Origin: Octopus vulgaris
Taxonomy: Eukaryota
Direction of reading: 5' to 3'
Assembly: GCA_951406725.2 (NCBI GenBank)
Contig: OX597834.1
Coordinates: 12,152,001 to 12,216,000, forward strand
DNA: 64,000 nt
In this document: positions 1,165 to 41,411 of the stretch, one piece after another
Layout: each line of letters starts with the position of its first letter
Numbering within the stretch: the first letter of the stretch is position 1
Translations under genes and position numbers: made by a program
The notes under the pieces: generated by a model
Told to the model about the DNA's origin: nothing
Databases searched by the model: none
What the model saw: the letters and a program-made list of their open reading frames with translations, nothing else

Positions 1165-1221
<57 letters not shown>

Positions 1222-1226
<5 letters not shown>

Positions 1227-1750
1227 AAATACTTTCGACATATGTTTCTTTGCTTCAATAGAGAAATCTACTTCCGAGCCTTTGAAAATTTTTCAACCAA
1301 TATATATCCCTCTTTTTTTATTCTCTACTTATTATTTCTTTACCCCTTTTCTTCCTAGTGTCTGCTTTTAAAGTCAAATCTACTAACGAGTTTAAAAAAA
1401 ATACTTAATGGCGTTCTGTTTATCATTTATGTAGTCATCAAAATTGTTATGTCTTCTTGTTGAGATAGGTTCTCTTTCTTTCCTGATGAGAAGATTGCAT
1501 TTTACATCCGTTTATTCTTTGGAATAAAACCAATGTTGTCTTCGAAACATATGTCGAAAGTAAAAGAATTTGAATAAGATCTGCGATCAACTCCATTTAT
1601 TTACTTATACTACACAAATTACTGCACATTAACCCAGAGTTTCTACCTTTGAATAGTTCATCCGTGTTACTTGCGTGAATTTTGCTACCCTGGTAACTGT
1701 TTATTGAATTTTCCATGTTAACGGTAAACAAAGTATAATTCATTCATCCA
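1222..1750 (+). mobile_element. Putative Penelope-like element terminal repeat / retrozyme-like island between microsatellites
   Basis: Bounded by (TA)n and (CA)n. Contains an intact minimal hammerhead (1478-1560) and a 19-nt inverted copy of its 3' part at the left end (1230-1248). Confidence 0.6.
1478..1560 (+). ncRNA. Type I minimal hammerhead ribozyme, intact core
   Basis: Stem I CTTTC(1478-82)/GAAAG(1556-60); core CTGATGA 1483-89; stem II closed by GAAGA(1490-94)/TCTTC(1539-43); GAAA 1544-47; palindromic stem III ACATATGT; GUC triplet 1553-55 with predicted cleavage after C1555. Confidence 0.85.
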
Positions 1751-1794
1751 TTTACACACACACACACACACCCACATATATATATCTATATGTG

Positions 1795-33593: not shown

Positions 33594-34191
33594 CTATTTC
33601 TTTTACTACCCACAAGGGGCTAAACACGGAGGGGACAAACAAGGACAGACATAGGTATTAAGTCGATTACATCGACCCCAGTGCGTAACTGGTACTCAAT
33701 TTATAGACCCCGAAAGGATGAAAGGCAAAGTCGACCTGGGCGGAATTTGAACTCAGAACGTAACGGCAGACGAAATACGTATTTCTTTATTACCCACAAG
33801 GGGCTAAACATAGAGGGGACAAACAAAGACAGACATAGGTATTAAGTCGAATACATCGACCCTAGTGCGTAACTGGTACTTAATTTATCGACTCCGAAAG
33901 GATGGAAGGCAAAGTCGACCTCGGCGGAAATTGAACTCAGAACATAACGGCAGACGAAATACGTATTTCTTTATTACCCACAAGGGGCTAAACAGAAGGG
34001 ACAAACAAAGACAGACATATGTATTAAGTCGAATACATCGACCCTAGTGTGTAACTGGTACTTATTTTATAGACACCGAAAGGATGAAAGGCAAAGTCGA
34101 CCTGGGCGGAATTTGAACTCAGAACGTAACGGCAGACACTACGGCTACGCATTTCGCTCGGCGTGCTAACGTTTCTGCCAGCTCGACGCCT
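33594..34191 (-). mobile_element. SINE family B concatemer: one head plus three ~184-bp bodies
   Basis: Units start at 33594, 33779 and 33963; junction gaaatacgtatttc; single head at 34140-34191. Confidence 0.9.
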
Positions 34192-40274: not shown

Positions 40275-41411
40275 TATTCCACTCTAGGCACAAGGTCGGA
40301 CATTTTTGTTGGGCGGGGGAGGTCAGTCGATTAGATCGACCCCAGTACGCCACTGGAACTTCAGTTATCGACCTCGAAAGGATAAAAGGCAGATTCGACT
40401 TCGGCGGAATTTGAACTCAGCACGTAAAGACAGACGAAATACCTATTTCTTTACTATCCACAAGAGGCTACACGTAGAGGGGACATACAAGGACAGACAA
40501 ACGGATTAAGTCGATTATATCAACCCCAGTGCGTAACTGGTACTTATTTAATCGACCCTGAAAGAATGAAAGGCAAAGTCGTCATCGGCGGAATTTGAAC
40601 TCAGAACATAAAGACAGAAGAAATACCTATTTCTTTACTTCTCACAAGGGGCAACACGCAGAGGGGACAAACAAGGACGGACAAACGGATTAAGTCGATT
40701 ATATCGACCCCAGTGCGTAACTGGTACTTATTTAATCGAGCCTGAAAGAATGAAAGGCAAAGTCGTCATCGGCGGAATTTGAACTCAGAACGTAAAGACA
40801 GAAGAAATACCTATGTCTTTACTGCCCACAAGGGGCTACACACAGAGGGGATAAACAAGGACAGACAAACGGATTAAGTCGATTATATCAACCCCAGTGC
40901 GTAACTGGTACTTATTTAATCGACCCTGAAAGAATAAAAGGCAAAGTCGTAATCGGCGGAATTTGAACTCAGAACGTAAAGACAGAAGAAATACCTATTT
41001 CTTTATTGCCCACAAGGGGCTACACACAGAGGGGACAAACAAGGACGGAGAAACGGATTAAGTCGATTATATCGACCCCAGTGCGTAACTGGTACTTATT
41101 TAATCGACCCCGAAAAGATGAAAGGCAAAGTCGACTTCAGCGGAATTTGAACTCAGCACGTATCGCAGACGGAATACCTATTTCTTTATTACCCACAAGG
41201 GGCTAAACACAGAGGGGACATACAAGGACAGACAAACTGATTAAGTCAATTACATCGACACCAGTTCGTAACTGATACTTGTTTAATCAACCCCGAAAGG
41301 ATGAAAGGCAAAGTTGACCTCGACGGAAATTTGAACTCCGAACGTAGCAGCAGACGAAACACGGCTACGCATTTCGCCCTGCTTGCTAACGTTTCTGCCA
41401 GCTCGCCGCCT
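40275..41411 (-). mobile_element. SINE family B concatemer: one head plus six bodies
   Basis: Unit starts at 40443, 40627, 40811, 40995 and 41178 (period 183-184); junction gaaatacctatttc; distal unit 40275-40442 has a different tail; single head 41360-41411. Confidence 0.92.

Follow-up and report, generated by a model that had tools for sequence, protein, structure and literature searches.

Hammerheads in the pseudo-LTRs (pLTRs) of Hydra-type Penelope-like elements (PLEs), their dependence on dimers, inverted arms and tails are already in print, and comparisons with the literature made below refer to the parts of each paper that were accessible to us. The closest described systems belong to the Hydra clade of C-terminal EN+ PLEs, which includes Hydra-1_Obim (Craig et al. 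2021, PMC8557442). Like the lineage described here, these elements have RW and DKT motifs, a C-terminal GIY-YIG domain without CCHH, and CxxC and CxH around E and N; they target (TA)n, carry a type I hammerhead near the 3' end and form inverted arms, one end of which bears a tail. However, the CxCX5C linker of the Hydra clade was absent before the nuclease in all 13 own-genome ORFs. The present lineage further differs in its ORFs of 778-908 aa with an Asn-rich or low-complexity linker, its unit of 3.2-3.6 kb and its tail of about 150 nt, against 30-40 nt in the Hydra clade. It also differs in the stem II domain of the hammerhead, which measures 47-58 nt here but at most 24 nt in 26 of 26 Hydra rows of File S2 of that paper (22 nt in Hydra-1_Obim), so that the arm is more than twice as long as the described one.

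The metazoan PLE hammerheads of Cervera and de la Pena (2014, PMC4209133) share with the present motif the pLTR location, a short stem I, a palindromic helix III, the G10.1-C11.1 pair and a predicted dependence on dimers. Their helix II has 6-8 bp, and A9 is usually followed by a bulged base, whereas the motif described here has a three-helix arm and no such bulge. A printed PLE precedent for a long stem II is found in the Selaginella PLE-X1 hammerheads (53 nt in PLE-X1_sMoe; File S2, PMC8557442); PLE-X1 is, however, a plant, EN-minus, rDNA-targeting element marked as deviating from the canonical structure, and no sequence kinship to the present lineage is visible by eye. Metazoan non-LTR retrozymes (PMC7229834; bioRxiv 10.64898/2026.07.22.740005) likewise have a type I hammerhead with a weak stem III, but are short non-coding tandem units, unlike the dispersed truncations of a coding element found here. 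Insertion has been studied in vitro for the Anolis carolinensis element PAc, a Poseidon PLE (Frangieh et al. 2024, PMC11167929). There, two internal reverse transcription (RT) starts downstream of the hammerhead define the tail, both strands are extended, and insertion proceeds from uncut RNA with no need for cleavage. AT-rich targets and the lack of ends at the cut site are common to PAc and the present lineage. PAc belongs to another clade, its start sites are adjacent and lie inside the ORF, and it showed no strand difference in vitro; in the present lineage the putative sites are separated by 150 nt within the 5' UTR, and one of each is invariably used by inverted arms.

Here, a window of 64,000 nt from Octopus vulgaris was analyzed, in which an initial annotation had noted a hammerhead. 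In our preferred reading, to which we give a probability of roughly 60%, the window holds a decayed 3' fragment of a Hydra-type PLE whose hammerhead would cut after C1555 only when paired via stem III, likely aided by the protein of the element, and whose insertions likely arise from uncut RNA. The observed parts of this reading are the motif, its pLTR site behind an ORF for RT and a GIY-YIG nuclease, a long covarying stem II, two fixed 3' ends with none at the cut site, and the one-of-each (AB) rule for inverted arms.

The hammerhead of the window and its predicted fold

A complete type I hammerhead was identified on the plus strand, with its core at 1478-1560 (1469-1569 including the distal stem I extension) and a predicted cut after C1555 (Table 1). 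All core elements named in the initial annotation, stem I, CUGAUGA, stem II, GAAA, the palindrome and C17 at 1555, were found where it had placed them, and the unusual length of stem II (54 nt) and its apical hairpin were confirmed. A hammerhead descriptor applied to both strands of the 64 kb returned this motif as its single match, and 200 dinucleotide shuffles of the window gave 0.04 loose and 0.005 strict matches per shuffle. The comparison with Rfam hammerhead models that had been recommended produced no match at the gathering score and no hammerhead among 35 matches at E<=10, likely on account of the long stem II. Rfam models do not define the hammerhead class. The 121-nt fold was no more stable than its shuffles (z -0.16). 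With no Rfam match and an ordinary fold stability, the case for a hammerhead rests on the motif and its relatives. Those same two results are what could be said for a chance match in AT-rich DNA, which is nevertheless hardly credible: none of the 200 shuffles contained a strict match with a minimal stem III, and diverged subfamilies retain the motif at a matching position.

Folded alone, the monomer formed stems I and II with a probability of about 0.9, while the pair probability of stem III was at most 0.02. Unconstrained cofolding of two copies resulted in exactly the double hammerhead, at -44.0 versus 2 x -18.3 kcal/mol, 7.4 kcal/mol below two monomers. The active shape is thus predicted to form only as a dimer. 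When 230 nt of upstream context were included, the probability of stem I dropped to at most 0.21 in 10 of 10 copies tested, and to 0 in the window copy. Since the fold is often lost in the longer context, co-transcriptional folding or the help of a protein is probably needed, which agrees with the low activity of PLE hammerheads even as dimers (PMC4209133) and with the Anolis hammerhead, which cut only with its protein (PMC11167929). The expectation that such hammerheads cleave efficiently as dimers was therefore upheld by cofolding as regards the dimer, but its efficiency conflicts with these two reports.

Table 1. Hammerhead and insertion features in the window
Feature	Position	Strand	Description
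(TA)n microsatellite	1171-1222		26 TA copies; left flank, likely target site
Short inverted arm	1222-1248	-	reverse complement of 1544-1562 joined to ~1600-1607, 37 nt missing; ends at terminus A
Direct arm	1249-1754	+	5'-truncated 3' UTR/pseudo-LTR and tail of a Hydra-type Penelope-like element
Stem I	CTTTC 1478-1482 / GAAAG 1556-1560	+	sequence
CUGAUGA core box	1483-1489	+	sequence
Stem II domain	1490-1543	+	54 nt: 6-bp basal helix, 5-bp middle helix, asymmetric internal loop, apical hairpin 1511-1528
Stem II basal strands	GAAGA 1490-1494 / TCTTC 1539-1543	+	6 bp including a U-G pair
GAAA core box	1544-1547	+	sequence
Stem III palindrome ACATATGT	1547-1554	+	directly before C17 = 1555
Self-complementary stem III ACAUAUGU	1547-1554	+	predicted 8-bp intermolecular helix of the double hammerhead (cofolding)
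Terminus A	1603-1609	+	+48 to +54 from C17; putative first RT start site
Tail between termini A and B	1610-1754	+	~150 nt; 5' UTR in tandem copies; terminus B at 1754, then (CA)n

The window copy is a decayed, ORF-less dead fragment. Its direct arm begins about 45 nt past the stop codon of the family, hence it contains no coding sequence, and it has a median identity of 88.8% to 61 copies. It is flanked by (TA)n on the left and (CA)n on the right, and the insertion is of the AB type, with one terminus A end and one terminus B end. The inverted arm is antisense to the core GAAA, stem III and the cut site, and in the predicted fold of this copy the 19-bp duplex 1230-1248 x 1544-1562 had a pair probability of about 1 at most positions. 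No partner hammerhead was found within the 64 kb. Consequently, with no partner and with an antisense fragment upstream that would mask the core, the window copy is probably inactive, and the suggestion of a potentially active self-cleaving RNA is unlikely to hold for this copy. Elsewhere in the window, tandem arrays of a 184-bp unit, probably SINE-derived, were observed at 33595-34137 (3.0 copies) and 40325-41346 (5.6 copies) with 90-92% matches; these arrays had no Rfam match and no hammerhead descriptor match.

The stem II arm and core across the lineage

From the loci collected in the O. vulgaris genome, a profile search recovered 83 distinct full-length motifs. The full hammerhead core was intact in 65 of these, and the stem II domain measured 47-58 nt in all 74 motifs in which it could be measured. 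Subfamilies with only 67-85% protein identity retain the long stem II and show compensatory changes in it. For the analysis of covariation, 26 motifs spanning the subfamilies were picked by a core-like pattern and aligned without structure. In this alignment of related rows, 88.9% of cells paired on the proposed structure, and 11 of 30 pairs changed on both sides. Changes on both sides occurred in 39 cells; shuffles gave 19.3, with none of 500 reaching 39, and slid controls gave 8-23. Of five covariation measures, two did not exceed the shuffles (96/500 and 284/500), and RNAalifold by itself found only 9 stem II pairs. Among the compensatory changes, G-C replaces A-U in the basal helix of 8 rows, A-U replaces G-C in the middle helix, and C-G replaces U-A beneath the apical hairpin. 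Such changes argue for the pairing of a three-helix, covarying stem II, and the covariation check that had been proposed, namely whether core and stem pairing are conserved among genomic copies, came out in favor of the motif.

The centre of stem III read TA in 15 of the 26 rows, TG in 7, CG in 2 and CA in 1, and was deleted in 1. The youngest subfamily has a perfect palindrome with a CG centre, and every change of the centre could be explained as a transition or as CpG decay. One subfamily departs from the usual core: in L084 (414-535, minus strand) and L085 the core reads CCGAAGA (U4C) together with A17. This subfamily has intact ORFs of 778 aa (L084:2670-5006, plus strand) and near-identical inverted arms.

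The host element and the ends of its copies

An own-genome DNA search gave 2265 first-look candidates, and the 40 that were scored had 89-93% identity (the window itself excepted). Exact patterns of 23-27 letters matched 266-535 places, so that the copy number, a further point raised by the initial annotation, amounts to at least several hundred. Other copies reach upstream, to differing extents, into an ORF with a GIY-YIG-type domain at its end. A protein search gave 145 scored RT matches with 60-100% identity, among them open frames of 778-908 aa. The unit of 3.2-3.6 kb has a single ORF with a telomerase-like RT and a GIY-YIG nuclease. In locus L087, of the same family as the window copy, two hammerheads lie 3176 nt apart around the ORF. 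The locus L082/L083 (G000:C1:119512500-119529900) holds a three-unit tandem with a period of 3625, about 100% identity and ORFs of 899 aa; this subfamily is very young.

An intact relative had a predicted structure (pLDDT 84.8) that matched telomerase RT best (E 5e-9), and a PDB sequence search gave one weak match to a retron RT (E 0.0075); NCBIfam gave no useful match. The GIY-YIG domain is assigned by its motifs and by weak Pfam matches in 5 of 42 aligned members, none of them in the L084 ORF. RW, DKT and YRDD motifs are present, with RWL and QSDKT in ORFs that reach the N-terminus; CxxC and CxH flank E and N, and CCHH is absent. CxxCxxE was seen in 12 of 13 ORFs and CxH in 8 of 13, the others being frameshifted, truncated or mutated at the end. 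By pattern, CxCX5C occurs in 34 of 45 database homologues and CxCX7C in 3 more. In a quick tree with unnamed homologues, the 13 own-genome rows formed one clade on a long branch; one homologue carries the label Argonauta hians. (TA)n or (CA)n stands at the end of most copies, insertion into (TA)n as in the Hydra clade was found, and pseudo-LTRs from partial tandems, inverted 5'-truncated arms and a tail at one end are all present. By its motifs we file the host as a Hydra-type PLE, apparently a derived lineage and not a textbook member of the clade. The assignment of the motif to a type I hammerhead with palindromic stem III in a PLE pseudo-LTR was borne out. The family had been called uncharacterised; the Hydra clade, with one octopus family, is already described, and the present long-arm lineage is not in the tables of that report (PMC8557442).

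Several features of individual copies were observed alongside. Between RT and nuclease, L069, L087 and L030 have an (AAT)n poly-Asn linker of very variable length, and several 5' truncations fall inside it; Adineta Penelope has likewise been reported to carry inserts rich in Asn (PMC3846280). Copies of the lineage are adjoined by fragments of further Penelope-like nuclease ORFs (L020:2-232, in element orientation; L083, minus strand, 2062-2985), which suggests common (TA)n targets. The runs X16-X20, which carry the labels of three other organisms, contained 20-32% of the words from 1248-1754, and related species may thus share the family. A candidate 5' splice site, TGCTACCC(T/A)G|GTA, lies at 1683-1698 of the window (GT at 1693) and is conserved in the 5' UTRs of L087, L074, L084 and L079. 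In most subfamilies an AG follows about 78 nt past this site (CG in the youngest), and this AG comes about 15 nt after terminus B. Contigs of four runs, guessed to be RNA but possibly DNA, cover parts of L087 and contained no GT-AG spliced joint.

The 3' ends of 74 arms anchored just past the cut site were concentrated at two positions: 40 ended at terminus A (+48 to +54 from C17) and 29 at terminus B (about +204, where the extension overshoots into AT repeats), together 69 of 74, and 5 ended elsewhere. In a first sample of 66 loci, 36 had head-to-head arms, comprising 28 AB pairs, 8 with one arm cut or broken, and neither AA nor BB; this excess of AB has a p of 4e-9 versus independent choice of ends. 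A second sample of 64 loci, in which AA is impossible, contained 29 pairs (20 BA, 9 other, no BB). Thus, one end of each type was present in 48 of 48 typed inverted pairs of both samples. A tail on one of the inverted pLTRs has been described (PMC3846280). The A and B ends fit the published two-site internal priming on uncut RNA, the simplest reading being an Anolis-type mechanism with start sites 150 nt apart, one per strand.

A pile-up of ends at the cut site, hinted at by three inverted pieces, was refuted genome-wide. Only 1 of 468 candidates for a 5' end at this site remained, and it was a mutated full copy; for 3' ends there were 12 candidates versus 535 continuing copies, and 10 of 10 inspected continue, with a three-letter filter estimated to catch only about half of true cut-site ends. 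The 5' ends of the copies range from +63 to beyond -1100, running into the ORF. In both samples they cluster at -127 to -98 from C17 (1428-1457 in the window; 18 of 74 in one sample and, of the 15 ends lying between -200 and -56, 10; p 1.5e-4), perhaps a transcription start or a microhomology hotspot. Stalling of the RT at the base of stem II was considered for the 11 tail-arm 5' ends that the first sample had between -21 and -7 and was rejected, as the second sample had 2 of 32 (p 0.94); the cluster is put down to the anchor used.

Predicted cleavage and priming, and the likely role of the arm

In the preferred reading, two pseudo-LTR hammerheads of a tandem transcript, about 3.2-3.6 kb apart, would form a double hammerhead. 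The element protein, probably a dimer, would nick both (TA)n strands, and reverse transcription would start internally, one strand being primed at +54 and the other at about +204; the scissile bond would still be intact as the RT passes over it. The effect of cleavage would then be to trim or regulate transcripts instead of defining the template. For the long arm, the most likely role is that of a module for folding or for docking the protein.

Cleavage could alternatively be part of replication itself, as in the model of Cervera and de la Pena (2014), in which the dimer cuts both pseudo-LTRs, the unit RNA is circularised, and internal priming by the RT results in copies of more than unit length. 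Such copies exist, as does the three-unit tandem, cDNAs cross the scissile bond, and a religated circular template predicts the same A and B ends; moreover, strong conservation of the core implies that cleavage matters. We nevertheless consider this model rather unlikely, since linear cleavage products left no footprint among the copies, and core mutants of the Anolis PLE insert normally, with no reads starting or terminating at the site (PMC11167929). At the other extreme, the motif might hardly cut and be kept for protein binding or recruitment of the RT, selection acting on the long arm and not on catalysis. This would account for its weak folding in context, for the U4C subfamily with its intact ORFs and near-identical arms, and for the conserved length and pairing of the arm, but is doubtful in view of the catalytic positions. 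Those that are unpaired were 96-100% conserved versus 77% for other columns, a value inflated in part by the selection of the 26 related rows for a core-like pattern, and position 17 was always C or A and never G.

The initial annotation had left room for a retrozyme, that is, a short non-coding tandem unit spread by small circular RNAs. The window copy, of about 500 nt, is indeed non-coding and has a type I hammerhead, and retrozymes stem from PLE pseudo-LTRs (bioRxiv 10.64898/2026.07.22.740005). Yet no tandem unit is present at the window locus, 5' ends spread from +63 to beyond -1100, and homology continues into the RT-EN ORF; the copy is truncated from an autonomous element, which makes a retrozyme very improbable. 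The preferred reading, a Hydra-type PLE inserting from uncut RNA, can be extended to the origin of the arm. Tentatively, a lineage from the Hydra clade may have lost the zinc-finger linker and gained a three-helix stem II that docks the protein to switch on the dimeric hammerhead, and the AB pairs would then record a protein dimer priming both strands from two fixed sites on one RNA. We regard this extension as possible, though somewhat unlikely.

A hammerhead in the pLTR itself was to be expected. Our literature search found no long-arm cephalopod PLE hammerhead, and the accessible parts of the O. vulgaris repeat paper (PMC13282606) do not mention hammerheads or Hydra. Nor did it find a covarying three-helix stem II in the Hydra clade, although the supplements of PMC4209133 and Lunse et al. 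2016 may hold examples of a long stem II. The search likewise turned up neither a lineage that lost the linker but still targets (TA)n nor a strict AB rule for inverted arms. That (TA)n is still targeted after the loss of CxCX5C speaks against the link proposed between linker and (TA)n. The arm provides natural compensatory variants that Rfam missed and that size-limited descriptors would likely miss too. The genome-wide end statistics extend the finding of two start sites from one Poseidon element in vitro to a distant clade, and add the one-of-each rule for inverted arms. For the function of PLE hammerheads, a single genome here provides many subfamilies of this lineage, ranging from decayed to near-identical; its near-identical tandem copies make the claims of a protein-docking arm and of priming by a protein dimer directly testable.
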